64,000 nt of DNA from Acidobacteriota bacterium (GTDB lineage: Bacteria > Acidobacteriota > UBA6911): the NCBI GenBank assembly GCA_963664705.1, contig OY761556.1:288001-352000 (forward strand). Reading direction: 5' to 3'. Made by a program: the position numbers and the translations under genes. A model generated the notes under the pieces. The model saw nothing but the letters and a program-made list of their open reading frames with translations. It was not told the DNA's origin and did no database searches. Positions 290 through 19,151 of the stretch are shown here, in pieces; position 1 is the stretch's first letter, and each line of letters opens with the position of its first letter.

Positions 290-363
290 TGGGAGATCGT
301 CTAATGGTAAGACGGGTGGCTCTGGACCATCTGATCGGGGTTCGAATCCCTGTCTCCCAGCCA
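290..363 (+). tRNA. tRNA-Gln(CTG)
   Basis: Acceptor stem TGGGAGA/TCTCCCA, D-loop TAATGGTAA, anticodon arm GGTGG-CTCTGGA-CCATC, T-loop TTCGAAT, encoded CCA. Confidence 0.97.
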
Positions 364-580
364 AAGTTTTTTTCTGCTTAATCCTCAATCACTTACAGCC
401 GCTATTTTTGCTTGATGTCCACAATTTCTGCTCGACGAATGTAAATTCTTCGCTGATCCCGCAATAAGTTGCATAGTGAGGGTTGATTCAGACGATTGCC
501 TATCCAACATGATTCAGGTTCCCGACGCGCCTTTACCGGCGGCGGAGGTTGCAGTCGTTTCCTATGTCCGGTTGCGCGAC
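344..580 (+). repeat. Direct repeat copy 1 (~237 bp) beginning with the 20-nt tRNA-Gln 3' end
   Basis: Matches 3509-3746 with about 4 substitutions and one 1-nt indel by manual alignment. Confidence 0.95.
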
Positions 581-780
581 AATTCATCCAAGTGACTAAT
601 CGATAGAAGGGTAATCTGGCAGGATGCTGAAGCTTTGCGCTTTGGACTCCATTCCGGGCAAAAGATAATTCCTTCAACCAACTGAAACAAAACCGAAGGG
701 AAATAAGAAGTTGGGATTATCCGTTCGTAGTCTGATTTCTTGCAGTTTTGCGGAAACTGCATCGAAAAGTTATGATGCAC

Positions 781-805
781 TGTAACCTTTTTCCTTCCTC
801 GCGAC
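781..805 (+). promoter_or_regulatory. Putative autoregulatory ECF promoter
   Basis: TGTAAC-N15-CGAC (ECF-type AAC/CG pattern) 10 nt upstream of the ECF sigma start. Confidence 0.5.
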
Positions 806-815
806 ATTATTAGTC

Positions 816-1451
816 ATGATGGATAGAACAACCGCTCAATCCGAGCCGGAAATCGATTATCGTCGGCTGCGCCTGCGAGATAATGAAGAGGTTGTTCGCT
901 GGTTTGACGCCTATTCCGATCCGGTTTACGGCTTCATCTTCTACCGCGTAGGACGGGATGCCGATTGGGCCAGCGACGTAGCCCAGGATACCTTTGTTAC
1001 AGCACTGGACACCATCGATCGATTTGACCCGCGCCGTGGCGAGATGTTTTCCTGGCTGACTCACATCGCCCGCAATTGCATCAGGAAGTCCCTGCGCAGA
1101 AAAAGCAGGGACAGCGCTCTGCCCGACTTCTGGAATACCGTCGATCATCAACTCAATAAAGCTCTAATCGATCTGAATTCGAGCATTCTGCCCGAGCAGC
1201 TACTAGAGAAGAAAGAGACAGCCGAGCTGGTACGCATGGCTCTGACCAATCTGCCGTTGCGCTATCAGGCGACTCTGCGCAGGCGCTACTTTGAGGACAT
1301 GTCGCTCCAGGAGATGGCCGCGTTTGAAGGGAGCAGCGAAGCGACGATGAAAGTGCTGCTCCACCGCGCCCGGCAGGCCTTTCGCACGGCATTTGAAACC
1401 ATCTCCGGCGCTTTATTCGAAGTGGAAGCAAGAGGGAGGAAGATTCCATGA
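816..1451 (+). CDS. ECF RNA polymerase sigma factor
   Basis: Region 2 (DVAQDTF, FSWLTHIARN) and region 4 HTH (MSLQEMAAFEGSSEATMKVLLHRAR); 211 aa. Confidence 0.93.
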   Translation: MMDRTTAQSEPEIDYRRLRLRDNEEVVRWFDAYSDPVYGFIFYRVGRDADWASDVAQDTFVTALDTIDRFDPRRGEMFSWLTHIARNCIRKSLRRKSRDSALPDFWNTVDHQLNKALIDLNSSILPEQLLEKKETAELVRMALTNLPLRYQATLRRRYFEDMSLQEMAAFEGSSEATMKVLLHRARQAFRTAFETISGALFEVEARGRKIP

Positions 1452-2746
1452 GCAACACGAATGAAACTCATGACCAAGGTTGCCTGGATAATAATTTGGA
1501 TCGGTTGCTCGAATTGGGCGAGCCGACTCCCGGGATGCCTGAAGATCTGAAAGCACGGATAAAGTCTAAATTAGTCAAAGCCGGACAGGAACCCGTGAAA
1601 AAAAGAATTTTTCCCGGCCGCTGGGCTGCGTGGCCTGTTGCTGCAACGATCCTGGCAGCCGTCATCCTGATTGTTCTTTGGTATGGCAACTCCTCCAAAG
1701 CTATCGCCTGGGCCGATGTTCAAAAACAGCTCATGCAGGTACACACGCTGACCTTCACAGCCCGTATCGAAACTTCATCCAATACGGGCGTGCCAATCAC
1801 CGAACAACTTTACAGGGTGTATCACCAGGATCCCGGGCTTTCGAGAAACGAGTTGTACGCCTCGAGAGCGGATATTGAGAGCGGCAAGCCCAAGTTCAAG
1901 TTGGTTAATATCTTCAGGCGAGATCACGATAGGGAAGAAATATTAAGACTATACCCGAATCCCCGTCGGGCAGAATGGAACACTATTATCTTCCATACCA
2001 ACGGCCGCGAGCTTCATTACTCTCCCCCTGTCGATCTGGCGGCTGTTAACTGGAAGTTGTTTAATCAGATCGCTGCTGATAAAACCCGGCGTATCGGCGA
2101 ACGGATAATTAATGGCATGGCCGCCGTTGGCTTCGAATTCGATGTGCCGGCCCGATGGAATATCGGCAATGCCGGGAAAGTCCAAGCGCAATTATGGGCT
2201 GGTCGTGACGACGGCAATGTCCTTTTTATAGAACTGAAGTATCGGAACGCCGAGGGACAGAATGTGAAAGCGGAGTACTTAGACATCCAATGGAATACTC
2301 CGCTGGAAACGGATCTATTCGATTTCGTCGTACCGGAGGGCTGGAAGGTCAGTCGAACCGAGACCGAATCGGCGGAATACGCCAATACCGGATTCGTTCC
2401 CGGTTTCATTCTGCAGATCGGCCCGGAAGGCAGGGAACCATTACTAGGAACAGGAGATGTGGCAGGGGTGGTCCGAGGAGAACAGATTACCCAGCCCGAT
2501 ACCGATATTCCGCGCGGAGTGCGAATTACAATCCAGTTGAGGCCGGAGGCGGTGCAGCGGCTGCGGGATTATGCTGATGCCAATCCGAGCACACTCATTG
2601 TCGCCGATTTCAATAGGCAGATAAAGGCCGTCCCGAGCCCGATTGGAACAGATTCCTCTCTGCTGAGCTTCGATCTTAGCTTACTAAACCTTTCTCTAGC
2701 CGAGCTGGAACAGAAATATTTCACAACCACTATCGAAAGGAAATAA
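1448..2746 (+). CDS. Putative membrane anti-sigma factor with LolA-like extracytoplasmic region and C-terminal SecDF-P1-head-like domain
   Basis: ATGA overlap with sigma gene; short N-terminal domain, one TM helix (VAATILAAVILIVLW), AWADV motif, LolA-like end (IQWNTPLETDLFDFVVPEGWKV). Confidence 0.7.
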   Translation: MSNTNETHDQGCLDNNLDRLLELGEPTPGMPEDLKARIKSKLVKAGQEPVKKRIFPGRWAAWPVAATILAAVILIVLWYGNSSKAIAWADVQKQLMQVHTLTFTARIETSSNTGVPITEQLYRVYHQDPGLSRNELYASRADIESGKPKFKLVNIFRRDHDREEILRLYPNPRRAEWNTIIFHTNGRELHYSPPVDLAAVNWKLFNQIAADKTRRIGERIINGMAAVGFEFDVPARWNIGNAGKVQAQLWAGRDDGNVLFIELKYRNAEGQNVKAEYLDIQWNTPLETDLFDFVVPEGWKVSRTETESAEYANTGFVPGFILQIGPEGREPLLGTGDVAGVVRGEQITQPDTDIPRGVRITIQLRPEAVQRLRDYADANPSTLIVADFNRQIKAVPSPIGTDSSLLSFDLSLLNLSLAELEQKYFTTTIERK

Positions 2747-2748
2747 CT

Positions 2749-3252
2749 ATGACCATCAGCATGCAATATGGAAAACCTCATCTTTGTGTTCATACAGTCC
2801 TGCTCTTTGCGGTTTTGGCGGTTATCTTCACAACCGCTCTCACAGCCGCAGTGTTAGCGGGCGACCAAACCGGAAAGCTTAATTTCGAACTCCGGCTCGC
2901 TTCATATCACAAAGTGGAGGGGTGGAACATGGTTGCCGGTCCCGGACCGGAGAAGACTCCCATATGGCTCTCGCCCGAAGTTGCTCTGACTAATTCCGAA
3001 ATAGCCCACGCCTGGCCTCAACCGGATGCAGACGGATTCGGTGTAGGATTTATGCTCACAGAGGAAGGGTCTCTGAAATTAGCGCGTCTAACCAAGTCTC
3101 ATATCGGCGAAAACGTGGCTATAATGCTCGACGGTCAGGTCACTGCTACCCCGAAAATCATGGCCGAAATTACCGGCGGACGAGCCATGATAAATGGCAA
3201 ATTTACTGAAGAATCAGCCGGATTGCTCGCGAAGCGGATCACGATGAAGTGA
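2749..3252 (+). CDS. Secreted stand-alone SecDF P1-head-like protein
   Basis: Signal/TM segment then LTEEGSLKLARLTKSHIGENVAIMLDGQVTATPKIMAEITGGRAMINGKFTEESA, the SecD P1-head signature; no SecD TM domain. Confidence 0.8.
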   Translation: MTISMQYGKPHLCVHTVLLFAVLAVIFTTALTAAVLAGDQTGKLNFELRLASYHKVEGWNMVAGPGPEKTPIWLSPEVALTNSEIAHAWPQPDADGFGVGFMLTEEGSLKLARLTKSHIGENVAIMLDGQVTATPKIMAEITGGRAMINGKFTEESAGLLAKRITMK

Positions 3253-3508
3253 TCATCTTCCGAATTGTGAAAAAAGGTCAGGAACGTGGATTTTACCAAA
3301 CAGCCACATCGTAAGATCAACACAAAGATTGATCCTGCTGGATGAGCTGATCCTCTGTATTGGCGAATTTGGTGTCCTTTTCTATCGCGTTCCAAAGCGA
3401 CTGGTGCGGTTAAATGGGAACCAATGAGACCGCAAATATCCCCTGCAAATCCGGCCTTGCCGAGCATATCTTCAAGAAGAATAGGAAGTTGCATTAAAAG
3501 GAGGACCG

Positions 3509-3746
3509 GAATCCCTGTCTCCCAGCCAAAGTTTTTTTCTGCTTAATCCTCAATCACTTACAGCCGCTATTTTTGCTTGATGCCTACAATTTCCGCTCGA
3601 CGAATGTAAATTCTTCGCTGATCCCGCAATAAGTTGCATAGTGATGGGTTGATTCAGACGATTGCCTATCCAACATGATTCAGGTTCCCGACGCGCCTTT
3701 ACCGGCGGCGGAGGTTGCAGTCGTTTCCTATGTCCGGTTACGCGAC
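3509..3746 (+). repeat. Direct repeat copy 2, including the tRNA-Gln 3' fragment GAATCCCTGTCTCCCAGCCA (3509-3528)
   Basis: Near-identical to 344-580. Confidence 0.95.
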
Positions 3747-3858
3747 CATCTGCCTAGTGACGGATTAATGAAAGGGTATATGCTTCAAGAATGTCGTGTA
3801 GGGCTTATTTCAGAATGAGCTGAGCCATTCAGCCAACGCTCTCGAAGGGAGAAGAATC

Positions 3859-5079
3859 ATGCGCGCATTATTATCGACAATCGGCTCGCAGGGCGATGTC
3901 CAGCCGCTAGTAGCGCTAGCGCTTCAGTTGAGGGCGATCGGCCAGGAGGTCCATTTGTGCGTACCGCCCGATTTTCGCGCTTGGCTCAATGGGCTGGGAT
4001 TGTCCATCACTCCTATCGGGCCCGAGGTGCGTTCGGCTGCAGCTAAACCAGCGGCGGCCCTCATTCCAACGCCCGAGCAACGTCATCAAATGATGAAAGA
4101 CATGGTCGCCATGCAATTCGACACAATCGCGGAAGCGGCCCAAAGCTGCGATATTATTTTGGCGGCAACTGCTTTGCAGATAGCTGCGCGATCAGTTGCG
4201 GAAAAAATTGGCATCCCCTATGTCTTCACAGCCTATAGCCCGATTGTTCTGCCTTCGCCTCTCCACGCCCCTCCGCCTCTACCACCTCTGCCCGGGCAGG
4301 CATCTCTGCCTCCCACGACGGATAATCGTGAACTTTGGGCGCGCGATACCAAACGCTTCAACGACGTTTTCGGCGCAGCGCTAGTAGCTCTGCGCACCTC
4401 AAAGGGCTTAGCCTCGGTCGGTGATGTGCGCAACCACATGTTTACCGACAGGCCTTGGCTGGCCGCAGACCTGGTATTGGCCCCCTGGCCTGACCCCGCA
4501 GACCAATTTGTGTTTCAGCCGGGCGCCTGGATTCTCCCGGATGAACGTCCGCTCCCTCCTGAGCTGAAGAAGTTTCTGGATGCCGGCGAACCGCCCGTCT
4601 ACTTCGGCTTCGGCAGTACGCGTGCACCAGCAGGCATCAGCCAGGTGATGATTCAGGCGGCACGCTCGATTGGGCGTCGCGTAATCATCTCTCAGGGTTG
4701 GGCTGACCTGTCGGTCGTGAACGACGAACCAGACTGCCAGGTCATCGGCGAAGTTAATCTTGTGGCGCTGTTCAAAAGGGTAGCCGTCATTGTTCACCAC
4801 GGCGGCGCCGGCACAACCACGCTGGCCGCGCGGGCAGGCAGACCCCAAGTCGCAATCCCGCAACTTTACGACCAACGCTACTGGGCCCACCGTATCCATC
4901 ACCTCGGTATCGGAATCGAGCACCCGGCCGGCACACCGACCGCTGACTCGCTGGTGGGCGCCCTTGAGCACGCTCTCCGCCCCGATGTTATTGCTCGAGC
5001 TAAATCCATCGCGGGCACGGTGCGCAGCGATGGTGCCCAGTTGGCCGCCCAGCGGTTGGTAGCAACCGCAAAGAGGTGA
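3859..5079 (+). CDS. GT1 glycosyltransferase, glycopeptide GtfA-E-like
   Basis: MRALLSTIGSQGDVQPLVALA, TDRPWLAAD, GAWILPDERPL, PPVYFGFGS, HHGGAGTT; RBS GGGAGAAG. Confidence 0.9.
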   Translation: MRALLSTIGSQGDVQPLVALALQLRAIGQEVHLCVPPDFRAWLNGLGLSITPIGPEVRSAAAKPAAALIPTPEQRHQMMKDMVAMQFDTIAEAAQSCDIILAATALQIAARSVAEKIGIPYVFTAYSPIVLPSPLHAPPPLPPLPGQASLPPTTDNRELWARDTKRFNDVFGAALVALRTSKGLASVGDVRNHMFTDRPWLAADLVLAPWPDPADQFVFQPGAWILPDERPLPPELKKFLDAGEPPVYFGFGSTRAPAGISQVMIQAARSIGRRVIISQGWADLSVVNDEPDCQVIGEVNLVALFKRVAVIVHHGGAGTTTLAARAGRPQVAIPQLYDQRYWAHRIHHLGIGIEHPAGTPTADSLVGALEHALRPDVIARAKSIAGTVRSDGAQLAAQRLVATAKR

Positions 5080-5364
5080 CCGCGGCTGGACATCAGATCG
5101 GAAATGGTCGTGTATCGTGCAAACCGGAGAAGTGTGTCGCATGAGTGCTCCGCATTTGGAGAGTATGCGGCACCTTTCTTGCCTTGATTGCCTCGTGGGT
5201 AATGGGGAATTCCCTAGAACGCCCGGGCTCTATTCCCAAGGACCGGCATACAATCTGGCATTTTCAGCAAGGTGGTATCCGTATACCCCGCGATTTATGC
5301 TGCTGGCTCAATTTTGTCGTTCAGCTCTATGGGATCAAGAAGGGCAGGAGCCAAAAGCGAAACC

Positions 5365-6210
5365 CTATTTTTTCTTTTTAGAGGATCGTTTATATACGCC
5401 AAGGCCGGGCTTATAGGATTTATCATCGAGAAATTGCTTGAAACCCTCTTCGTGCTCCTCCCCGGCAAACGACCAGAGTTGTTCCTGCTTCGATGTAAGG
5501 TATTCTTCAGAAAAATCCCAACTCAGTTCCTGGCTTCTCTTGAAGGAGTCTTTGGCCGCCTTTAATACCGCGGGACTTTTCTCGAGCAGGAGGTTGGCCA
5601 ATTCACGGACCCGTTCCCGAAGTCTTGCCAGCGGTACGGACTCGTTTACAAGACCCATCGAGGCTGCCTTTTTGCCATCGAACAACTGTCCCGTCATGAC
5701 ATAGTACAATCCATCGCGGGAGCGCATCGTTTCGGCCACTGCTTTGCTGACATTTCCTGCAGGAATTATGCCCCAATTTATCTCAGATAACCCGAATTGC
5801 GCTTCGTCCGCCGCAATTGCCAGATCGCAGGAAACGATCGGGATAAAGGCCCCGCCCAATGCCCAGCCATTGACCATTGCAATCGTCGATTTTTCGAAAT
5901 AACGCAGCCGGCGCCAGGCCCATTCGTAATTGATTCGCCGGGCCTTGATGGTTGCGATGCGCGGACGCTTCTTCATATCCCGGAAGTACTCTTTGATATC
6001 CATGCCTGCGGAGAATGCCTGGCCTGCTCCCGTAAGCACCATGACTCCGCAATCGTCATTTGCTTCAACCTCATCGAAAATCTCCAGCATCCGCGTGGCA
6101 AGCGCCGGGTTGATGGCATTGCGTTTTTCCGGCCGGTTGATCGTGACCCACGCCACTCCCCGATCGTATTCAAGTTTTACAATATTCTTCTCATCTGCTT
6201 TGGATTTCAT
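5365..6210 (-). CDS. Hydroxycinnamoyl-CoA hydratase-lyase (crotonase family) homologue
   Basis: NRPEKRNA, AGMDIKEYF, FGLSEINWGIIP, C-terminal QFLDDKSYKPGL; start moved to ATG 6210 behind a GGGGAGA RBS. Confidence 0.85.
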   Translation of the reverse strand: MKSKADEKNIVKLEYDRGVAWVTINRPEKRNAINPALATRMLEIFDEVEANDDCGVMVLTGAGQAFSAGMDIKEYFRDMKKRPRIATIKARRINYEWAWRRLRYFEKSTIAMVNGWALGGAFIPIVSCDLAIAADEAQFGLSEINWGIIPAGNVSKAVAETMRSRDGLYYVMTGQLFDGKKAASMGLVNESVPLARLRERVRELANLLLEKSPAVLKAAKDSFKRSQELSWDFSEEYLTSKQEQLWSFAGEEHEEGFKQFLDDKSYKPGLGVYKRSSKKKK

Positions 6211-6377
6211 GACATTCTCCCCAAAAACAAAATTGTATCCTGTCCGGCGCCGTCGGGTTTTCCCCGACCCGTTGAATCTGCTTGACCCAATCAGTACAAC
6301 GGTATCAAAGTACCTGCCGTAGCGTGCACCCGCAAGAGCATTGAGTAAACCGATGTGCCATCCGAAAGGAAAGAGTG

Positions 6378-6851
6378 ATGAAACGATCTGTTGTCGTGAT
6401 TGTTTTTCTTTTGGCGGCGGTGGCCATGACCGCCATGGCTGCAGACCCATGGAACGGGACATGGAAGATAAACCCGGCCAAATCCAAAGCCCCGGGAGGC
6501 CGGCTGCCCCACCCAAGCTCCACCAATATAATCGAAATCCAGGGGGAAACGATGCACCTGATTTCCAACCAGACGGATGGAACGGGGAAACTGGAGCGCG
6601 TGGAGTATACTGCGGCATTCGACGGTAAGGAATATCCTGTTAAATCGGTGCCGCCGGGGCCTCAGCCCTATACGATCTCGCTGAAACGGATCGATGCGCG
6701 CACGCGGGAATTTGTTGAGATTATCGGCAAATTTACTATTAAGGGTCGGGATGTCCTCTCTGCGGACGGCAAGAGCTTTGATCGCATTGTAAACAGCAAG
6801 GATGCTGAGGGCCACGACACCAGCGTGATTCAGGTCTTCGACCGACAGTAG
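6378..6851 (+). CDS. Secreted beta-barrel (lipocalin-like) hypothetical protein
   Basis: Signal peptide (AMA-AD) followed by DPWNGTWKINPAKSK and FDGKEYP; RBS AAGGA. Confidence 0.7.
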   Translation: MKRSVVVIVFLLAAVAMTAMAADPWNGTWKINPAKSKAPGGRLPHPSSTNIIEIQGETMHLISNQTDGTGKLERVEYTAAFDGKEYPVKSVPPGPQPYTISLKRIDARTREFVEIIGKFTIKGRDVLSADGKSFDRIVNSKDAEGHDTSVIQVFDRQ

Positions 6852-6902
6852 CGCTGCTGCCCCACTTCCGCCGTATTGTCAGTTGTTGATTCTGCCGGAT
6901 GG

Positions 6903-6936
6903 ATGGATCCCATAGTGTCCGAACCATGGGATCCAT
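6903..6936. terminator. Hairpin between convergent genes
   Basis: ATGGATCCCAT / ATGGGATCCAT 11-bp inverted repeat; no canonical U-tract. Confidence 0.45.
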
Positions 6937-6962
6937 AAAAGGCCTGTTTTGTCGTGCTTCAT

Positions 6963-8480
6963 TTAAGGCATTAACAGATTCTTTGTCGCGAAGTACGGCT
7001 CGGTGGTCAGATTTACGCCAAGCTTACGCAGGCCTGCTTCATCTCCGGCCGTGGGAATGTGGGTCATATGAACTTCACAGCCGCGCAAGTCCGTCAGCTT
7101 TTCGATCGCCATTTGCGCGGCCGGGTTATTGGCGGCGCTGATGCTTAGCGCGATCAGGGTTTCCTCGAGGTCGAGACTCACGGATTTCTCCTGGAGAATA
7201 TCTGTCTTCAGGCTGCGCACCGAATCGGTAATGGATTTTGGCAGCAGTTTGATTTTGCTCGGGATGTCGGCAAGGCGTTTGATGGCATTCAGGATTAGGC
7301 TTGAGGATGCATGCATCAGCGGCGAATTGTTGCCGGTGATGATGGTTCCATCCTTGAGTTGAATGGCCGCGCCACAGAAAATGCCTTCATTCCCCTTCTC
7401 CTGTACCTGAGCCTGCCGGGCGGCTTCCCAGGAGGGAGCCACGACTATGCGGTCTTCCGGTTTCAGTCCCAGATCTTTCAAGAACAGCTCGACGCGCTGT
7501 ACCGTCTCCTTGTCGGTCAATCCCATCGCATATTCGCAGCGGTAGCGGAAGCACCTGCGGATGATCTCCTGTCTCGAAGCTTCTCCTGTTACATCGTCGT
7601 CGATGATGGCAAAGCCAGCTTTGTTGACGCCCATGTCGGTTGGAGACTGGTAAAAGGATTTTCCTCCCGTGATCTTGCCCATGATCCGTTTAACGACGGG
7701 AAATACTTCCACGTCGCGATTGTAGTTGACGGCAGTTTTTCCGTAGGCTTCCAGGTGAAATGGATCGATCAGGTTGAAGTCGCGGATATCCGCCGTGGCG
7801 GCCTCGTACGCTACATTTACTGGGTGCGTGAGCGGTAGATTCCATATTGGAAATGTCTCGAACTTGGCATACCCGGCCTTAACGCCCCGGCGGTATTCGT
7901 GGTAAAGCTGAGACAGGCAGGTCGCAAGTTTTCCGCTGCCGGGTCCGGGGCCGGTCACAATTACCAGCGGCTTTTCGGTCTCGATATACGGATTCTTTCC
8001 ATACCCTTCATCGCTCACGATCGATTCGACATCGGTTGGATACCCTTTCGTGAAGCTGTGGGTGAAGACTTGGATATTTCTTCGCTCCAGTTTATTTTTG
8101 AAGAGGGTTGCCGCCGGCTGATGGTCGAAGCGCGTGATGATGACTCCGCGTACGTTGATGCCCCAATGACGGAGATCGTCGATCAGCTTCATGGCATCCG
8201 CATCGTAGGTGATGCCAAAATCCGCCCTGATCTTCTTGCGCTCGATGTCTCCTGCATAGATGCACAGTAGAATATCGGCTTTCTCCTTGAGTTCCCGGAT
8301 CAGCCGCATTTTCACATTCGGATCATAGCCGGGGAGCACACGGGATGCGTGATAGTCGAACAAAAGCTTCCCGCCGAATTCGAGATAGAGCTTATTGTCG
8401 AATCGCTCCACCCGCTGGGTAATCTCCACCATTTGCTCGCGTATGTATCGTTCATTGTCAAATCCGATTCTGACGGGCAT
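6963..8480 (-). CDS. UPF0371/DUF1846 family P-loop protein
   Basis: GFDNERY, KLYLEFGGKL, GPGPGSGKLATCLSQLYH, KFETFPIWNLPL; start taken at MPVRIG. Confidence 0.9.
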   Translation of the reverse strand: MPVRIGFDNERYIREQMVEITQRVERFDNKLYLEFGGKLLFDYHASRVLPGYDPNVKMRLIRELKEKADILLCIYAGDIERKKIRADFGITYDADAMKLIDDLRHWGINVRGVIITRFDHQPAATLFKNKLERRNIQVFTHSFTKGYPTDVESIVSDEGYGKNPYIETEKPLVIVTGPGPGSGKLATCLSQLYHEYRRGVKAGYAKFETFPIWNLPLTHPVNVAYEAATADIRDFNLIDPFHLEAYGKTAVNYNRDVEVFPVVKRIMGKITGGKSFYQSPTDMGVNKAGFAIIDDDVTGEASRQEIIRRCFRYRCEYAMGLTDKETVQRVELFLKDLGLKPEDRIVVAPSWEAARQAQVQEKGNEGIFCGAAIQLKDGTIITGNNSPLMHASSSLILNAIKRLADIPSKIKLLPKSITDSVRSLKTDILQEKSVSLDLEETLIALSISAANNPAAQMAIEKLTDLRGCEVHMTHIPTAGDEAGLRKLGVNLTTEPYFATKNLLMP

Positions 8481-8656
8481 GAGTACTTTTGAACCCTCCT
8501 GGGATGTGTATGAGTAATATGGAATGACGAATTTATAACGGTATCCGTGAACTATCTTCAACTACTAAATATGAAAATCCTATTGCGGGCCCGGTAATGA
8601 TCAAATGCCAGATCGTGTTGTCCCGCATTGGGCTTCCTAGGACTTGCCTGCTTTGA

Positions 8657-9853
8657 TCATCTTGCTTCGGCCTGCCGTGCTTTGATCTCTTTATACGTTA
8701 TTGTGTCGATCAAAATATATGCGAGCAAGACGATAAGCCCGGCCAGAGAGATGACAAACGCCTGGCGAAAGTCCGTGATTCCCATCTGTTTTTGAATCCA
8801 GGCAAATGCCAGCGGCTGGACGAACTGGCCCAGGCCGGAGGTTGCATAGAAGATGGACATCGCCATGGTAACTGCAACGGGCGCAACCATCGAGGAGACC
8901 CTCGTCAGGACCCCCGGGATTACCAGTGCAAGCCCAACACCGCAGAGCATCATGGCAAGATTAATCAGAATGAGCGAGTGCCCGGTGAAAGCAACAAAAG
9001 CCGCGAGGGCGTTGATCAATAGGCCGCAGGCTATAACATATTTCCGGAAGAGCTTCGCGAGCAGGCCGAAAAACAACGCTACGATGGAGATCGAAATCGT
9101 CAGGAGCGACATGGTCAGGCCCAGATCGGCGGAAGTCGCAATTTTCTCGCCAACAGCCATCATGGCTGTGGTTGTCACAAAGGCGAACGTGAACATTGCA
9201 TAGAACAGGTACCAGACTGAAAATGTCCAGGTGCGCCACGCCATCCTGAATTTGGCTTTGACTTCTTTATTGGTCGCAGATGTTTTTGACTGGCGCTCGG
9301 GCTCCGGTACGATGACAAAAGCGATCAGATAAAACACGGCGCACACTGCCGTGGCGATACATGCATATCTCCAGTTGATTCCCGCGAGGTAACCGCCCAT
9401 AAGCTGGAACACGACGCCGCCAACGGACGCTGCTGCCTGGTTCCACCCCATCATCGTCTGCCTGGTCGAACCGTCGAAAAAATGCACGATCAGGTCGGCT
9501 GCGGCCGGAGTCAGAAGGCCAACCCCTGCACCCATCACGAACCGCAGCACCAGGAAGAACGTAAAGTTGTCAATGAAGGCAGGCAGAATACCGCCAATCA
9601 GCAGAAGGACGATAGCGACAAACAGTATCTTACGCCTTGCCGCTATGTCGGTGAGCTTGGCGTAAACCGGCGAAAAAATTACGCAGCACAGCGAAGGGAT
9701 CGTCGACAGCAGTTGAATGATGCTCGGAGCGACTTTGGGAAACGCTGCCTGAATTGCCGGGAGCACCGGATTGAGCATGCTTTGCGGGATCGTGAGCAGG
9801 GCCACCGCCAAAATACCGATTTTGAGTACATTGCGATGGACATCTTTAGTCAT
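8657..9853 (-). CDS. MFS transporter
   Basis: About 12 hydrophobic helices, motif-A-like KLTDIAARRK, LRFVMGAGVG. Confidence 0.9.
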   Translation of the reverse strand: MTKDVHRNVLKIGILAVALLTIPQSMLNPVLPAIQAAFPKVAPSIIQLLSTIPSLCCVIFSPVYAKLTDIAARRKILFVAIVLLLIGGILPAFIDNFTFFLVLRFVMGAGVGLLTPAAADLIVHFFDGSTRQTMMGWNQAAASVGGVVFQLMGGYLAGINWRYACIATAVCAVFYLIAFVIVPEPERQSKTSATNKEVKAKFRMAWRTWTFSVWYLFYAMFTFAFVTTTAMMAVGEKIATSADLGLTMSLLTISISIVALFFGLLAKLFRKYVIACGLLINALAAFVAFTGHSLILINLAMMLCGVGLALVIPGVLTRVSSMVAPVAVTMAMSIFYATSGLGQFVQPLAFAWIQKQMGITDFRQAFVISLAGLIVLLAYILIDTITYKEIKARQAEAR

Positions 9854-9967
9854 GGACGATTCTCCCTTTCCGGTAAACCAGGCGTAGCGCAACTGCAGTC
9901 ATCCAACCACACGATCCCTTACGGTTTGTACCCGCGGCCTCCGATATCCGGTGCCGGTTTTCGGTAT

Positions 9968-11074
9968 TTAGCCGCCGTAGTTGATTCTCGATTGCTTGTA
10001 AAGCTCTTCGCGGAAGGCATTGGTCAGAATACTGAGCCCGGGCATCATTGAATACATGCTCAACGCGGACGGTTTGTCGGGTCGGCAGTATTTGTTGGCG
10101 TAGGCTCGGGCGTAGGCTCGCTGCTCCTCCTCTGTCGAGTTTTTTACATCGTATATCTCAGGCATTGCCGCAATGATGATCCGGTCGCCGTAGAGGTCGT
10201 AGATCTTCTCGATATCGTTCATCGCCTGCGGCATCCAGGAGTCGAAACCCGCCGCGATCATGTTCGTCACCTGCTTGATATTGCTGCCGCAACAATGCAG
10301 GTCGGCGAATTTGCCCTTTGAGTGAATAAAATCCGTCACCCTGCGCATGAAGGGGACAAGCATCTCGGACACCACCGCGGGCGAGAAAAACGTGTCCTTC
10401 TGTGACCCCCAGTCATCATGTATCGTGTAGATGTCAACCTGTGGGAAATAGGTTATGAATTTATCCATCATCCGTATGTAAAGATCGGAAAGCCTGTCGA
10501 AAAAGCGCTTTACCGCATCTTTCTGTTCCTCGTCCACCATTGCCAGAATAGCGCCTTCAAAATCCATGAATGAGATCAGCCGTTCAAAGTATCCGTTCAT
10601 GAACATAGCGGCATAAGATGCCGTACTGCCCAGGTACTGCTCGTTTGCCTTCGAAGCGCCTTCCCAATCCCAGTTGTCGATGTCCGGCCATATAACCTTT
10701 TTCTCGATGTCATTGGCATCTTCAATGAATGGCTTGCCCGGCCGAACCATCGATCCGCCCGCCGATGGTATGTATTCCCATTCGATGCCGAAAAGGTCCT
10801 TGCCTCCCGTAAGATTGCTGACGCCGGGAACAACGGTGCCGTCAAAAACAAAGGCGCGGGCCACGTTGTCCGGGTTTATCGACGGAGTGAAATTTTTGCT
10901 CTCAACGCCGATTCCCAACATGACCTGCCAGATCGCTTTCCTGGCATACAAAGCTCTGACCGCCTCCTTTCCTGTGGTGGGGAAGCTGTAAATCGGAATT
11001 CCGGGGCCTCCAAAAAAATCCGGCACTTCTGCAGCAACCTGCAGTTCTCTTGGATTGAATTTCGGAATTTGCAT
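9968..11074 (-). CDS. Uroporphyrinogen decarboxylase / MtaA-CmuA methyltransferase family protein
   Basis: FERLISFMDFEGA, HDDWGSQ, Zn-ligand-type LHCCG; RBS GAGGGAG. Confidence 0.8.
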   Translation of the reverse strand: MQIPKFNPRELQVAAEVPDFFGGPGIPIYSFPTTGKEAVRALYARKAIWQVMLGIGVESKNFTPSINPDNVARAFVFDGTVVPGVSNLTGGKDLFGIEWEYIPSAGGSMVRPGKPFIEDANDIEKKVIWPDIDNWDWEGASKANEQYLGSTASYAAMFMNGYFERLISFMDFEGAILAMVDEEQKDAVKRFFDRLSDLYIRMMDKFITYFPQVDIYTIHDDWGSQKDTFFSPAVVSEMLVPFMRRVTDFIHSKGKFADLHCCGSNIKQVTNMIAAGFDSWMPQAMNDIEKIYDLYGDRIIIAAMPEIYDVKNSTEEEQRAYARAYANKYCRPDKPSALSMYSMMPGLSILTNAFREELYKQSRINYGG

Positions 11075-11478
11075 ATATTCTCCCTCAAACGTGAGGATAA
11101 GGAGGATGGGCGGTGGACTCCTGAGCCGATTCGTCTCAAATCCTCTGTTGCGATTTGGATAATTTCCTACATGTTGCCTGAAATCGATAAATCCGGGCAA
11201 TGGGGCATTCTAGCCGAAGATGAAGATGCCAGATAATGATATCTGGAAGTCACAGGCTTTCCTGAAACAGCCTATCCATAGATTCGGAGTGCGTTATCGA
11301 GTGATAGCACAGAGGCGGAATTATTTTTTTCTGTTCGCTATGTTATTTGATGCCCATAATCATGATGTTTCTGCCGGTCTCAGGAGAATACCATGGAATT
11401 TGCGAGCTATTGGGCTCGCGCCATGGCTCGGACGAAAACCTGTTGAGCACGGAATAGGGTCAAATGGGAGGACAGGGG

Positions 11479-14400
11479 ATGAAAAGGACTGTTTGCGCGG
11501 TTCTGAGGCGTATAGAGATAACCCGAAGCTGCATTCCAGGCGTTGCACTCCTATGCCTGTTCGTCATGCAGCCATGTTCTGCCGGGACTCGGGAAGAATT
11601 GTTCTCCGCGATTGAACGTGGAGATCTCGAGGTAGTTCGAAGTCTCCTGAACTCGGGCGCAGACCCGAATAGCTGCTCTGATGGTATCTTTCATCCGCTT
11701 ATTGCGGCATCCGAAGCCGGCCGGATAGATATAGCCAGGCTTTTGGTCGAGAAGGGATCCAATGTCAATGGGGGGTGTCCTGGCGCGCTGGCGCCTCTGA
11801 TAATGGCCGCGAGCAGGGATCGTGTCGAAATCGTTCAATGGCTGCTGGAGAAGGGAGCTGACATCAATGTCAAGGACATGAGCGGACGAACCGCCCTTAT
11901 GACAGCGGCAGAGAAGGGGGCCATAAGATCACTGACCGTTCTCCTGAAGATGGGCGCCGATGCCAAAGCCCAGGATCAGATGGGAATGACTGCCTATGAG
12001 TTGGCCGTGCAAAACCAGAAAGGGGAGGCTGCGCGGCTGCTGGGAGGGAAACCGGTCAATATCAGGAATGCCGCAGCAGACCGGAGGCGGCTGCAGGAAG
12101 CGATGTTCAAAGATAATACGCAGCTGGTCCGTCAGATTCTCGATGAAGGAGCTGATGTCAATTCCCGTGTTGACGGCCAGACGCCGCTCGAAACGGCAAT
12201 TGCTTTTGGACGCGAGGATATTGTTGCTCTTTTGTTGGAAAAGGGTGCGGATGTCAATGCCAGCGGATTTGAGAATCGGACGCCATTGATGCTTGCTGTA
12301 GAGGACGGCAAAACGAAAATTGTCTGGCTGCTGGTGAATAAGGGAGCCGACCTAAAAGCCCAAAATGTCTTTGGCCAGACGGCGCTGAACCTCGCCACCC
12401 GGGAACGGCGAACGGAAATCGTCAAGCTTTTGACAAACAAGCCTTCCGGGCCTCCCCCCGGTCCGACTCAGAAGGAGTTGAGTGAAGAGTTGACGATGGC
12501 GACCGCTGCGGGGAATATCGAAAAAATCAAGGAGTTGCTGGCCAGGGGAGCGGATAAGAACGGGATCAAGGGCGATGCGATGCCTCCGCTGCTAATGGCC
12601 GTTGGAAGCGGAAAGCCGGAAGTCATCGACGTGCTGCTGCAGGCCGGGGCTGATATCAACACGCGTGGAGCTATCGGAATGACCGGTCTGATGCTGGCGG
12701 CAAATCATGGCCGCCTTGAATTGGTGCGATACCTTCTGGATCGAGGTGCCAATGCCAATGCAAAAACAGATGCAGGACAGACTGCCCTGACACTGGCTTC
12801 CGGAAAAGACCGGGCAGAGATCATAAAACTCTTGACCGCGAGAGGGTCCCGCCTGGATCCCCAGTCGGACATGTATTCGGATATCATGAAAAACTCCGGC
12901 GCAAAGGGAGAAGATAGCGTTGCTGGTAAAAAGATGGGTTCCGCGATTGCCAAGGCGAAGACGCAGTCCCGTCATTCCGTAATTGCATTGCTGGATGCCG
13001 CATCGGCAGGAGACGTGGAGGCGCTGCGCCTGCTGTTGGCACAGGGTGCCGATGTCAATGGGGAGAACACGGGGCAGGACACGGCGCTTTTAAAGGCGTC
13101 GAGCGGCGATCATATGGAGGCCGTGAAGTTGCTCCTCGATCGCGGCGCCAATGTGAATGCCGCTAATTTCTCCGGACGCACGCCATTGCTTGAGAGCGCC
13201 GGGCGCCACAATGTGGAGCTTTCCCGTTTGTTGATTGCCCAGGGTGCAAGCATTAACGCGGCGGATCGTGACGGACGCACGCCGCTGATGGAATCGGTCT
13301 GTTCCGGGAGCCCGGAAATAGTGCAGATGCTGGTCGATAAGGGCGCCAATGTGAACGCGGCGGATAAAGAGGGGAAGACCGCCTTCTTTCACCAGTGCCA
13401 GGGCGGAGAAAGCACGAACAAGGTTGCCGAAATTCTAAAGCTTCTGATTGCCCGAGGCGCCAACGTGAATGCAAAAACACTGAAGGGCAAAACCATGCTG
13501 ATGTCGGCGGCGGACACCAGCACCGTCGAGGTGGTTGGAATTCTCCTGGATAAAGGTGCCGACGTGAATGCCCGCGACAGCCGCGGGCTGACGGCCCTGC
13601 TTACCGCGCTTACAACGCACTATTACAGGTCCGATACGGTGCGACTTCTTGTGAATCGCGGCGCCGATGTCAACGCTGCCACAGCGGATGGACTTACGCC
13701 GCTGATGTGCGCATCCGAACCGGACTTTGTCCGAATGCTGATCGACAGGGGGGCGAATATTCATGCGGTCGATCGCAGCGGCAGAAGCGTTTTGTACCAC
13801 CACGGACGATATCTCAAGACCGCGCAGATGCTGTTGGCAGAAGGCGCAAGACCGCTGAAGACAGATACAATTGCCATCTATGCGACCGGCGGCGACTTTC
13901 CGTGCCTGGAATGCTCGCTGCTTTTCCTGGACAATGGTGTGGACTTGGAGGTGCGCGACCGATTGGGCGAAACGTTGTTGATGCATGCCGTCGGTTTCAA
14001 TGAGCTCTCCTTCATGCAGAACCTGTTGAATCGCAAAGCCGACGTGAGGGCTGCGGATCCGCAAGGCAACACTGTTTTGCATAAGGTCGCATTTGTGGAA
14101 TATGCGGAACTCCTTTTAGCCAGGGGAGTGGACGTCAATGCCCGCAACAAAGACGGCCGAACACCGCTGATGACCCAGAGCCGCGCTAAAATTGCCGAGG
14201 TTTTGATCCGGAAGGGCGCTCAGGTAAATGCCCGTGACAGCGAAGGGAACACCGCCCTTATTCTAAGCCGCAGTTTTGACAAAACGGAGCTTCTGGTCAA
14301 TCAGGGGGCCGATTTGACAATTCGGAACAACAAAGGCGAAACTGCGTTGACGGCTGCGGCGGAGCTGGCTGATACCTTCAGCGCGACTGTTCTCTTGAAG

Positions 14401-14514
14401 AAGGGAATTGACGTAAATGCCCGAACGACCAATGGCGAGACAGCCTTGAGCATTGCAATTCGAAAAAAAGATGCAGCCATGACTACGCTTCTCAAGAAAG
14501 CAGGCGCACTGTAG
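11479..14514 (+). CDS. Large, probably exported ankyrin-repeat protein (~1010 aa)
   Basis: Roughly 25 or more G-x-T-(P/A)-L...LL-x-x-GA-(D/N)-VN repeats; hydrophobic N-terminal leader. Confidence 0.92.
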   Translation: MKRTVCAVLRRIEITRSCIPGVALLCLFVMQPCSAGTREELFSAIERGDLEVVRSLLNSGADPNSCSDGIFHPLIAASEAGRIDIARLLVEKGSNVNGGCPGALAPLIMAASRDRVEIVQWLLEKGADINVKDMSGRTALMTAAEKGAIRSLTVLLKMGADAKAQDQMGMTAYELAVQNQKGEAARLLGGKPVNIRNAAADRRRLQEAMFKDNTQLVRQILDEGADVNSRVDGQTPLETAIAFGREDIVALLLEKGADVNASGFENRTPLMLAVEDGKTKIVWLLVNKGADLKAQNVFGQTALNLATRERRTEIVKLLTNKPSGPPPGPTQKELSEELTMATAAGNIEKIKELLARGADKNGIKGDAMPPLLMAVGSGKPEVIDVLLQAGADINTRGAIGMTGLMLAANHGRLELVRYLLDRGANANAKTDAGQTALTLASGKDRAEIIKLLTARGSRLDPQSDMYSDIMKNSGAKGEDSVAGKKMGSAIAKAKTQSRHSVIALLDAASAGDVEALRLLLAQGADVNGENTGQDTALLKASSGDHMEAVKLLLDRGANVNAANFSGRTPLLESAGRHNVELSRLLIAQGASINAADRDGRTPLMESVCSGSPEIVQMLVDKGANVNAADKEGKTAFFHQCQGGESTNKVAEILKLLIARGANVNAKTLKGKTMLMSAADTSTVEVVGILLDKGADVNARDSRGLTALLTALTTHYYRSDTVRLLVNRGADVNAATADGLTPLMCASEPDFVRMLIDRGANIHAVDRSGRSVLYHHGRYLKTAQMLLAEGARPLKTDTIAIYATGGDFPCLECSLLFLDNGVDLEVRDRLGETLLMHAVGFNELSFMQNLLNRKADVRAADPQGNTVLHKVAFVEYAELLLARGVDVNARNKDGRTPLMTQSRAKIAEVLIRKGAQVNARDSEGNTALILSRSFDKTELLVNQGADLTIRNNKGETALTAAAELADTFSATVLLKKGIDVNARTTNGETALSIAIRKKDAAMTTLLKKAGAL

Positions 14515-14698
14515 ATCGGCAAGTCGAATTCCAGATTCCAGACACGGCGGGTTCTTGTAGCGATTTTGTGGTGTCATGCGTTACTATGGTCCGGATTGCT
14601 GGATGCCGCATCCGGCTCGCGCGTCTCATTTCCAGTCACTGTTTCAGTTCGTAGGTCTTTGCATAGGGTGTTAACGCTTATTGCATGGCCGAGGTCCC

Positions 14699-17600
14699 AT
14701 GAATAAATCCCTGCGGATTCTCTGTGTCGAAGGCAGCCCCTCCGATTTTTCCCTGATTCAGCAGCATCTGAAGAAATACCTCCCGCAGGTGGAGTTGAAT
14801 CGCGTTACCTGCGAGGCTGATCTGAAGACCGCACTTGAGGACGGAGTCTGGGATGTGGTGCTTTCCGCTTTTGCAGGTCCGGGCTTTGATTTCAAAGATG
14901 TGCTGCAAATGCTTCTGCCCTGGCGCGATGAGCTTCCGGTCATCCTGGTTTCTGACCGTCATGAACAGGAACAGGCGGTACAACTTCTCAGCCAGGGAAT
15001 CTGGGACTTTATTCTGAAGGACAATCTGACTCGCCTTGTTCCCACGATAGAGCGCAGCGTGAAGGATGTTGAAAATTATCGTGCGCGTCGAAAGGCTGAG
15101 CTTGCGCTGCAGGCAAGTGAAGAGCGATTCCGGGCGATTTTCGAGAACAACCCTGAGGGAGTTCTTGTGGTGGATGCGACCGAAAAGCGGATTCTCATGG
15201 CTAATCAGAGCATGTGCCGGATCCTGGGATATCGCTTGGATGAGCTGTCGCAGTTGGGCGTCATCGACATACATCCCCAGATCAATCAGCCGCGCGTTCA
15301 CCTGGAATTTGACGATCTTGCGCGGAAGGAGAGGCATTTCGCAAAAGAAATTCCTGTATTGCGCAAAGACGGATCCATTTTCCTGGCGGATATCAGTGCC
15401 AGCAATTTCGAGGTTGGCGGCCAGCGGTTCATGGTGGGTCTGTTTCACGATATCACTGAGCGTAAATTTGCCGAAGATGCACTGGAGGCGGAGGCTACCC
15501 GGCGACGAATTCTGGTGGACGCGTCCTGGGATGGAGTCGTTGTTCTTGATCAGGATGCCGCGGTTGTTGAGGCTAACCGGCGTTTTGCGGAGATGCTGGG
15601 CTATTCTGCGGATGAAGTCCGCCATTTGCATGTCTGGGATTGGGATTTCCAGTGGTCCAGGGAAATGGTATTGGATTCCATCCGTTCTGCTCCTGCGGGC
15701 GGGTATTTTGTGACGCAACATCGGCGCAAGGATGGGTCGGTGTTCGATGTCGAGATTTCAACAAATTACGCCGAATTGAAGGGCCAAAGACTTTTCTTCT
15801 GTGTTTGCCGAGATATTACAGAGCGCAAACAGGCCACGGAAGCGCTCGCACAGAGAGAAGAGATATTCTCGATCATTGTCGGCCAGGCCATGGATGCCAT
15901 TACCGTTGTGGATGTATCCAACGGGCGATTCGTTGAATTCAATACCGTCGCGCATGAAGGACTTGGCTATACACGTGAGGAATTTGCAGCTTTCAGTATT
16001 GCCGACATCCAGGGCGAGCACACACCTGAGACCATACAACAGAATCTAACTGCCATTCGTCTCCAGGGCGAACTGAGTTTTGAATCGAAGCATCGCCATC
16101 GGGATGGCAGTTTGCGTGACGTGCGGATCAGTGTCCGAAAACTGAGCATCAGGGATCGTGAGTACGCGGCAGCGGTCTGGACGGACATTACTGAGCGCAA
16201 GCGCGCCGAGCAACGCAATTCCCGCGATGCGTTGCGGACCGAGTTCCTGCTGCAATTGCATCAAACCGCATCTCAGATGACGGATCGGGAACTCTATGAC
16301 CATGTTCTGGAGCGCGCGGTACGGCTTACCGAGAGTTCCATCGGTTTCTTCCACCAGGTATCCGAGGACCAGAATTCTATTCTGCTGACCACCTGGAACA
16401 GGGGGGCGCTCGAGAACTGCACTGCCAACTATGATTCACATTATCCCGTGAACACGGCCGGCAACTGGGTGGACTGCATTCGTGAGCAGAGGCCGGTTGT
16501 CTATAACGATTATGCGACTTCGCCCAATCAAAAAGGGCTTCCTGAAGGGCACGCGCCGGTGAAGCGGTTTATGAGTATTCCGGTGATTCGCGATCAAAAA
16601 GTCCGCATTATCTTCGGCGTGGGCAACAAGGCAACGGATTATGACGACAGTGATGTTTCCCAGTTGCAGATTGTTGCCAACGAACTGCATAAGATAATGA
16701 CGCAGCGGGCCGCTCAAAATCAGCTGCGGCAACTGTCACAGGCCGTGGCTCAAAGCACAACCAGTGTTGTGATCATGGATACGGCGGGTGCAATTGAATA
16801 TGTCAACCCCAGGTTTACCCAAGTTGTAGGGTACTTCCTAGATGAAGTGCAGCATCGCAGTTTCAGGCTTCTAAAGCCGGATACTGTTTCGATGGAGGAT
16901 GAAAAGGGAATTTGGGGGGCAATCCTGGATGGCAAGGAAGGGTGGCATGGGGAGCTTCAAATCCGAAAGAAAAATGGAGAGCTTTATTGGGAATCCGCGT
17001 CGGTTTCTCCCATTGTTGATGCCATGGGCCAGATAACCCATTTTGTAGCTGTTATGGAAGATATTGCGGAACGAAAGCGGCTGGAGTTGTTCCGTGAGGC
17101 GCTTCTATCTCTCGGGAATCAGCTCAATAGCACACGAGATGCCGCAAGTGTGGGCAGGTCTGTGATTGGGATTGCCGATCGATTGTGGCGGTGGGATGCC
17201 GCACGGCTGGATGTCATCGATGCAGGCACGCAGCAGGTTTCGTCGATTTTTAGAGTGGGGCTTGTGAACGGAAAGCGTTTTGAGCTGCCACCGCTCGGAG
17301 TTATCCCGCTTACAGAGCAGATGCAGCGAGTGATCGTGCGCGGACCCGAGTTGCAGAGTGTTGCCATGGAGGGGCTGCCCGAGGCCATCCCATTTGAAAC
17401 CGAAGGGTGCCAGGGGGCATCCATGATGTGCGTGCCCATTCATCGTGAAATGCACATTGTGGGATTTCTTTCTATTTGCAGCTATTCGACCGGCGCCTAC
17501 ACGCAGGAAGATCTGAAAATATTCCAGGCCCTGGCGGATTACTGCGGGGGCGCACTCGACCGCATTCGATCTGAGGAGTCCCTCCGCGAAAGCGAAGGAA

Positions 17601-19108: not shown

Positions 19109-19122
19109 CCCCTCCGATAGAT

Positions 19123-19151
19123 GCCGGGGGAGCGCACCGGCGCTCACCCGG
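19123..19151. repeat. GC-rich REP-like hairpin, copy A
   Basis: GCCGGGGGAGCGC-ACCG-GCGCTCACCCGG between convergent genes; shares a 13-mer with 51929. Confidence 0.5.

Follow-up and report, generated by a model that had tools for sequence, protein, structure and literature searches.

A doubled segment behind tRNA-Gln in an Acidobacteriota genome as the possible left end of an integrase-less island with a nested palindromic site

Background

Integrons and CALINs (clusters of attC lacking integron integrases) are cassette arrays with attI and attC sites, in which accessory modules are bounded by sites; dif sites have an 11-6-11 geometry, and the arm and IHF anatomy of lambda-type attachment (att) sites together with the geometry of lox provides a further basis for comparison. 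Cis-mobilizable elements (CIMEs), tandem site-specific accretion and chimeric internal sites are treated in excerpts of PMC5704250 and PMC7563491, attP sites of ~250 bp and a T-loop/junction subsite in excerpts of the Islander work (PMC4383910), and the pdif (dif) modules of Acinetobacter in excerpts of PMC6449649. The locus considered here lies in a 64,000-nt stretch of an Acidobacteriota bacterium (assembly GCA_963664705.1, contig OY761556.1, positions 288,001 to 352,000; the window), in which a preliminary description, made from the sequence alone, had reported that the 3' end of a tRNA-Gln gene and the DNA behind it recur downstream as an unusually long direct repeat.

We propose, with a probability only slightly above one half (roughly 0.55), that each copy of this repeat is the left end of an island at tRNA-Gln without an integrase, and that it extends from the att core as far as the spacer of a lox-like palindromic site, here denoted M; an integrase would have doubled the island at the tRNA, and a separate Xer-like recombinase would have exchanged the cargo at M. 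Throughout, positions are those of the window, G000 is the genome under study, other G numbers denote related genomes, and L numbers denote fetched loci.

The repeat behind tRNA-Gln and its att core

The two copies, at 344-580 and 3509-3746 (237 and 238 nt), are 97.9% identical and differ at five positions (418, 420, 429, 479, which is an indel, and 574), all four substitutions being transitions; a BLASTN search of the whole single-contig 6.9-Mb genome confirmed the repeat and gave a copy number of two. A tail of weaker similarity reaches 613/3778 (BLASTN alignment of 271 nt, 94%), and an alignment of equal quality was obtained for 1 of 20,000 random genome segments. The parts of the locus that belong to the att sites are the following.

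290..363, forward strand: tRNA-Gln(CTG), the integration target (ARAGORN, Rfam)
344..363, forward strand: att core copy 1, the tRNA 3' end from GAATCC, where identity with copy 2 starts
364..425, forward strand: P' arm copy 1 (foreign-genome profile, E 8.9e-7)
383-395, forward strand: IHF-like site, copy 1, agreeing at 7 of 9 specified positions with the consensus given in an excerpt of PMC9452768
412-419, forward strand: arm-type site of P' copy 1, 1 mismatch to TTGGTGTC
426..560, no strand assigned: stretch of 135 nt within the repeat, origin unassigned, ~71% similar only to the same position in G028
3343..3508, forward strand: P arm; a profile built on five foreign P arms matches the genome here only (E 1.7e-16)
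3369-3376, forward strand: arm-type site in the P arm, the first of the usual two sites being lost to an 11-nt gap
3509..3528, forward strand: att core copy 2, centre of the P-core-P' junction (alignment)
3529..3726, forward strand: P' arm copy 2 and second copy of the 135-nt stretch (profile, alignment)
3548-3560, forward strand: IHF-like site, copy 2
3577-3584, forward strand: arm site of P' copy 2, 2 mismatches

Because a matching P arm directly precedes it, copy 2 is the centre of a P-core-P' site. The P arm, which the preliminary description had missed along with the palindromic site at the right end of the repeat, is also the single G000 match (3362-3498, E 4.2e-14) of a profile from two foreign arms (G014 and G034), and holds conserved downstream motifs and degenerate IHF-like sites in addition to its arm-type site. 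The 150 nt upstream of copy 2 match the DNA preceding the second cores in G014 and G034, the P arm is in register with the attR of an integrase-bearing element of G107, and the GAATCC core boundary is the same in G014 and in this G107 element. The exact arm-to-core pattern was found in 3 of 137 class genomes, and the P-core-P' composite also in two metagenome contigs (L113 and L120), where the genes flanking it are unrelated, while G014 has a P-core-P' junction with a degenerate P'. The idea that core and arm were left by tandem build-up of integrase-less units gains from the P arm before copy 2, from the junctions in L113, L120 and G014, and from the variability of the cargo described below.

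In relatives, the ~60-90 nt behind tRNA-Gln that are held in common consist of the IHF-like site and TTGGTGTC; the latter (at most 1 mismatch) is located at +35 to +75 in 13 of 38 tRNA-Gln loci, with 3 further loci too short, and at least 7 of 10 records with the tRNA-plus-arm pattern are assigned to Acidobacteriota. The IHF-like site previously placed at 383-395 stands by its 7 of 9 consensus bases, and so does the earlier statement that no third core closes the second unit: a search of the genome for a core with at most 4 mismatches and an adjoining arm returned none, nor did the foreign-arm profile find a second P arm. The earlier view of the whole repeat as core plus a shared arm holds for ~80 nt only, the right end being set by M.

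The 135-nt stretch at 426..560 had no other match among the fetched loci and none in Rfam, and an overlapping 91-aa open reading frame (ORF) has no Pfam match. Two other identities of the repeat were tried and rejected, namely a structured RNA (Rfam gave the tRNA alone, and the M alignment is without a consensus fold) and an integrase remnant (a six-frame reading and tblastn with the cognate integrase described below were empty at 364-600).

That the arrangement is an assembly artefact, with two haplotypes or a chromosome and a free circle joined at the repeat, is very improbable. None of the records examined extends across the two copies, the unitig graph is equally compatible with a linear tandem and with a chromosome accompanied by a 3.2-kb circle, and the genome is listed at 6% contamination. 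However, both alleles and the P-core-P' junction are present in independent short-read unitigs (two runs of one sample, which may itself be the source of the assembly). These split into flank, repeat, a unit carrying an extracytoplasmic function (ECF) sigma factor module, repeat, and flank, with the copy-1 allele in one run and the copy-2 allele in the other. The ECF unitig enters the repeat at its right end, and because it ends inside the repeat, the junction 3508/3509 is real DNA. This unitig does not show a consistent excess of depth over its flanks (14.2 vs 8.9/10.9; 8.5 vs 12.9/16.7). In a second sample, the tRNA is continuous with copy-1 alleles, and pieces of both cargos are present at ≥99% identity. 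Derived changes are found on both copies, and a free circle, if there were one, would have come from the very system proposed here. Four small-share metagenomes contributed short pieces, mainly on the tRNA and ECF genes; two metagenome joints (X10, 371 to 3626; X6, 3430 to 3508), each from one low-likeness contig, were set aside, as were loose ends in X5.

An integrase clade associated with the arms

In L130, a gene for a 397-aa PF00589 integrase comes directly after the tRNA-Gln core, an IHF-like site, and the arm pair formed by TTGGTGTC and its inverted copy (this locus was examined to 10 kb downstream). The arm pair immediately precedes the integrase in 4 of the 4 close clade members inspected (L130, tRNA-Gln; L111, Gln core; L139 in G107, tRNA-Ser; L250 in G486, tRNA-Leu), and L140, a relative at 33-36%, is without it. 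The arm motif is thus linked to one integrase clade in other genomes. The G107 element is complete, comprising the integrase, an HTH_17 gene and, 7.3 kb further on, a P arm; for the G486 integrase, no attR was found within 60 kb. Autonomous relatives carry the integrase and an HTH_17 gene, and no relaxase was detected among the ORFs scanned, which cover part of each element. Comparison with L130, L139 and L250 shows that the autonomous elements continue with the inverted partner site and the integrase, both of which are missing behind the P' of G000.

Screens for the cognate integrase detected it in 2 of the 137 class genomes (E ≤ 1e-40) and, at E ≤ 1e-60, in 1 of the 401 phylum genomes. The tRNA-Gln island of G018, a member of the same genus, retains an integrase remnant of ~25 codons (62-67% identical) together with the arm pair. 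The search for a tyrosine recombinase linked to the same arm, which the preliminary description had suggested, succeeded in that the clade exists in other genomes and failed in G000. The 27 PF00589 matches of G000 itself were considered as the cognate enzyme and rejected, the best being 27.6% identical and the arm profiles matching nowhere else in the genome. A phage helper was also rejected: the P', P-arm and M patterns were without a viral-contig match, and a single integrase relative at 26% was found.

A palindromic site at the right end of the repeat

M came to light through a match between 565-606 and G017, where the matching DNA precedes an ECF gene at a place remote from any tRNA. M is a 34-bp imperfect palindrome that consists of a 13-bp arm, an asymmetric 7-nt spacer and a 14-bp inverted arm.

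561..594, forward strand: M1 (41 bits, matrix from 21 foreign sites)
574-580, forward strand: M1 spacer; the near-identity of the repeat stops at 580/3746, the last spacer base
3727..3759, forward strand: M2, with left arm and spacer as in M1 except for one base, 1 nt shorter
5101..5134, reverse strand: M3, an inverted M-like site with another spacer, 22 nt past the stop of the glycosyltransferase gene

M2 scores 5.3 bits ungapped and 33.8 bits with one column removed; its covariance-model E value is 1.8e-7, with M2 being part of the training set. The arms-only score of M3 is 21.8 bits, and in the genome 5 sites reach such a score, as does 1 in the reversed control. The glycosyltransferase gene lies between M2 (+) and M3 (-), the right arm of M2 being degenerate and the spacers different. 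A break of the repeat on an M spacer would occur by chance in ~2% of cases over a 391-nt interval, a post-hoc figure.

A pattern search for M produced 23 matches in 16 of the 51 family genomes and none when the reversed control was searched, and a sequence-only model detected M in 32 of the 51, training sites included, often clustered 1-3 kb apart, with 12 neighbouring pairs on the same strand and 6 on opposite strands. A strong same-strand M lies at most 1 kb behind the tRNA in 4 of 38 tRNA-Gln loci, G000 included; the best, weak, windows in G018 and G028 are at +188 and +190, respectively, vs +195 in G000. Among plasmids, there was no meaningful M match. Other M-like sites in G000 are located at C1:5083128(+), 5899669(-), 5899799(-), 5860671(+) and 645297(-). 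Inspection by eye showed that a second, AACTTCC...GGGAC-like motif often stands 20-40 nt behind M (L180-L184, L189, L196, L063, L133, L202).

M borders accessory modules and accompanies an Xer-like recombinase

For 66 M sites, 24 pairwise alignments run past the site, 22 of these on one side only, and 69 pairs share the site alone. In G024, which has a copy of the ECF module away from any tRNA, homology to the G000 module begins at M, and another M in the same orientation follows the module. M is a dispersed site at the borders of accessory modules. The clearest cassette-like array was seen on contig C144 of G024 (L157/L198), where seven M-model matches in 20 kb flank the ECF module and small genes.

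An Xer-like recombinase is encoded in 18 of the 50 other family genomes; an intact 324-aa representative, with M on either side, is found in G036. A more symmetric variant of M occurs within 200 nt past the recombinase 3' end in 5 of 24 cases (≥10 bits), vs a background of 1 per 2 Mb, and is located 24-43 nt past several recombinase stops. For the recombinase fragments, the best NCBIfam-type models are XerA, XerC and XerD, with the integron model at E 8.8e-6 and all below cut-off, and the nearest solved structures to the M-linked recombinase are Xer proteins.

These data bear on another possible history, namely a plain tandem duplication of a CIME by an integrase followed by illegitimate deletion of the second ECF copy and attR, in which M would be regulatory or passive. 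M is often found upstream of accessory genes in either orientation, as the strand counts of neighbouring sites given above indicate, most recombinase genes are without M, and decaying CIME tandems are described as common in the excerpts of PMC7563491. Random deletion, however, would not account for the second M right arm, different from the first, that stands behind the spacer, and the inversion of the M arms around an asymmetric 7-nt spacer, like the symmetric variant shortly after several recombinase stops, speaks against a passive M. We regard this history as improbable.

A tentative model and the points against it

On the reading that we prefer, an autonomous element with an integrase and an excisionase-like gene would have entered the ancestral tRNA-Gln and lost the integrase, with attL and the P arm staying behind. 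A circle of the composition P-core-P'-spacer-M-cargo, excised by a transiently supplied integrase, would then have inserted again at the tRNA core, in a chromosome that had the same attL, yielding tRNA-core-P'-M-ECF-P-core-P'-M. Recombination at one M would have exchanged the downstream DNA; the second ECF copy and attR, for instance, might have been deleted in this way and the glycosyltransferase gene brought in. The order of re-entry and M exchange is not fixed. The proposed replacement of the DNA downstream of one M would be the reason why the copies diverge at the spacer and no third core is left. The array is probably a relic today, although homologous recombination could still release it as a 3,165-bp circle.

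A number of observations weigh against this model. On the integrase side, no cognate enzyme was found in G000 or in any of the 51 family genomes (E ≤ 1e-40), which also leaves the earlier idea of mobilisation in trans unsupported for the present day, and the arm sites of G000 have decayed (P1 lost, the P' sites with 1 and 2 mismatches, the inverted partner gone). On the side of M, the Xer-like recombinase was not found in G000, 19 of the 24 recombinase 3' ends are without M at 10 bits, and a homolog on a Granulicella plasmid (62%) has no nearby M. The right arm of M2 is poor, being degenerate and different from that of M1, and exchange between M2 and M3 is not expected because the M3 spacer differs. 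M was absent upstream of the ECF unit at the same tRNA in G014, beside the glycosyltransferase homolog of G035 (the only other one in the family), and between the SecDF-head gene and the P arm in G000. The one-sided alignments are not independent, lie mostly on the left (19 vs 3), and in several cases reflect a shared recombinase gene. Finally, no recombination product (a circle, an empty site or a spanning read) is among the records examined, none of which covers both copies.

Several of these points would suit another explanation, in which homologous recombination or gene conversion over the shared core, P' and spacer made or homogenised the repeat in an old tandem of diverged att units or with a sister-strain fragment, the tract ending at M merely because the M left arm is the last well-conserved block. 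It would agree with the negative search for a site-specific enzyme in the genome, with arm sites that have decayed although the copies are 97.9% identical, and with the diverged tail after the identical block, and a crossover anywhere in the 237 bp of identity yields the same structure. Nevertheless, a P-core-P' junction inside the 20-bp core is still needed, and such junctions recur in L113, L120 and G014; moreover, the tail is accounted for as the M right arm, and the break is at the edge of the spacer and not at the end of M. This explanation appears less likely, and site-specific doubling at the tRNA with exchange at M remains our preferred reading.

More speculatively, and well short of even odds, the locus might exemplify a two-tier gene-capture platform in Acidobacteriota: an integrase-less tRNA-Gln island, moved and stacked by an outside lambda-type integrase, with a lox-like landing site ~190 nt behind the tRNA at which a stand-alone Xer-like recombinase swaps multi-gene cassettes. 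If so, the 237-bp repeat would correspond to the bare chassis of the platform, seen here with two different cassettes, and an integron-like function, nested in a CIME, would have been assembled from non-integron parts. In any case, the locus provides a base-level breakpoint at a family of palindromic sites. It also points to two candidate enzymes whose genes are intact in other genomes, the integrase and the Xer-like recombinase, to the sites of both, and to a junction that can be predicted. Should M prove to be a genuine site of exchange, it would offer these bacteria a way, overlooked by integron and island finders, to reshuffle regulatory and modifying genes such as the ECF module and the antibiotic-glycosyltransferase-like gene, and the recombinase with its site would be a candidate for a new orthogonal tool.

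Cargo genes

As the preliminary description had stated, a different cargo follows each copy, and its assignments of an ECF module and a glycosyltransferase were right.

816..1451, forward strand: ECF sigma factor, 211 aa (Pfam Sigma70_r2, r4_2)
1448..2746, forward strand: putative anti-sigma factor, 432 aa, with an apparent transmembrane segment (role inferred from position)
2749..3252, forward strand: SecDF P1-head-domain protein, 167 aa (PF22599, E 2e-19)
3859..5079, forward strand: GT28/EryCIII-like glycosyltransferase, 406 aa (Pfam, NCBIfam)

The 432-aa protein has no Pfam or NCBIfam match, and its Atlas matches, 0.82 at most, are leads at best. By homologs of this protein, the ECF module is represented in 9 of 29 other genus genomes (11 loci) and 0 of 21 other family genomes; the loci other than G014 (ten fetched, several on short contigs) have no tRNA and no att arm. 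The ECF sigma gene of G000 is 90% identical to that of G024 at the nucleotide level compared with 73% for glnS, which suggests transfer of the module; the anti-sigma tree, in which G000 is on a long branch, was uninformative. A scan for promoters and terminators performed at chance level. A motif at 780-815, upstream of the sigma gene, is conserved in all nine homologous loci compared; we take it to be ECF-type promoter-like, suggesting autoregulation of the sigma gene.

For the glycosyltransferase, the closest NCBIfam model is the rifamycin glycosyltransferase Rgt (395 bits, under the cut-off of 800), and by this similarity the protein could be a candidate antibiotic-modifying enzyme; of the other 50 family genomes, 1 has a close homolog. 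The remainder of the variable region (5365-19946) carries genes for an enoyl-CoA hydratase, a DUF1846 protein, a major facilitator superfamily (MFS) protein, a URO-D-like protein, a 1,016-aa ankyrin protein and a 1,475-aa PAS/GAF hybrid kinase, and ends before a conserved ROK-ppk-ppx block that, in relatives where it was reached, begins ~1-7 kb behind the tRNA.

tRNA-Gln islands of relatives

The cargo behind tRNA-Gln varies from genome to genome, in line with the variation that the preliminary description had asked for across relatives. The cognate integrase is absent from this cargo (101 ORFs scanned), the integrase matches in G018 belonging to other clades. In G034 (L064), an 18.8-kb unit from the tRNA to attR (656-19446; 22 ORFs scanned without an integrase match) carries fasciclin, glutathione peroxidase, TspO and DUF1722 genes. 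The G018 island (L063, 14587-19117) contains an apparent three-gene recombinase-in-trio (RIT)-type block (two PF00589 genes and a third ORF), as well as a truncated SAM_4-type integrase and a PemK-like gene. The integrase that converges on tRNA-Gln in G063 (L094) is a different one (33% identical) and has other arm repeats, and other arm-like repeats are also found behind tRNA-Gln in G061, G035 and G068, so that several integrase lineages use this tRNA. Toxin-antitoxin-type pairs (zeta-like AAA and a small ORF; Phd and PIN) are located right before the P arm in L113, L061 and L120. Apparent second cores in G066 and G068 turned out to be whole tRNA copies on separate contigs. Elsewhere in G000, integrases converge within 300 bp on tRNAs Val-TAC, Arg-TCG, Ser-CGA and Arg-ACG, and there are three tRNA-SeC calls.

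Comparison with known systems

The first unit (344-3528) resembles a CIME. It has neither an integrase nor transfer genes by Pfam analysis of its ORFs, the nearest PF00589 match being >700 kb off, and it retains attL and attR as recognised by foreign profiles, both arms partly decayed. The second, glycosyltransferase unit lacks an attR: neither another arm-flanked core nor another P arm was found in the genome. The earlier notion of an array of related mini-elements is sustained for the att-bounded first unit and not for the second cargo, which is not a complete att-bounded unit. To the extent that CIMEs are characterised in the cited excerpts, the likeness covers att-bounded cargo without an integrase, a chimeric internal site (here P-core-P'), a size class of 1-13 kb, and variable cargo at one tRNA, whereas the present locus differs in that no functional integrative and conjugative or integrative and mobilizable element stands in tandem, the left ends are 98% identical, the second cargo is without attR, and a second type of site lies inside.

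With tRNA-targeting tyrosine-integrase islands, as outlined in the excerpts of PMC4383910, the locus shares the repeated tRNA 3' fragment, an attP-like composite of ~250 bp, and the start of identity in the T-arm region, consistent with the T-loop/junction subsite. The tRNA and a displaced 3' fragment in direct orientation were both found, but no integrase is on board and the arms are partly decayed.

For M, the excerpts of PMC3414803 contain no family that matches this context. The pdif modules, so far as the excerpts of PMC6449649 go, are similar in having accessory genes between short palindromic sites of the tyrosine-recombinase type, here a glycosyltransferase gene between inverted sites. 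M, however, has arms of 13/14 bp and a 7-nt spacer, is chromosomal and nested in a tRNA island, and is associated with an Xer-like enzyme separate from the host XerC/D. Integrons and CALINs are similar in having site-bounded modules, clusters 1-3 kb apart, and a variant site beside the recombinase gene; in contrast to these systems, M modules are multi-gene with sites in both orientations, RNAalifold predicted 0 pairs of an attC-type hairpin for 14 M sites, and the recombinase falls outside the IntI class, scoring best with Xer-type models (XerA, XerC, XerD).

A literature search, which was weak on subscription papers, yielded no published description of an Acidobacteriota tRNA-Gln island or of a non-integron cassette site like M. 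Integrase-less tandem islands at tRNAs have been described as CIME accretion, so the earlier claim of an undescribed system does not extend to the tandem-island layer, which is of this known kind; the nested layer of M sites may be undescribed.

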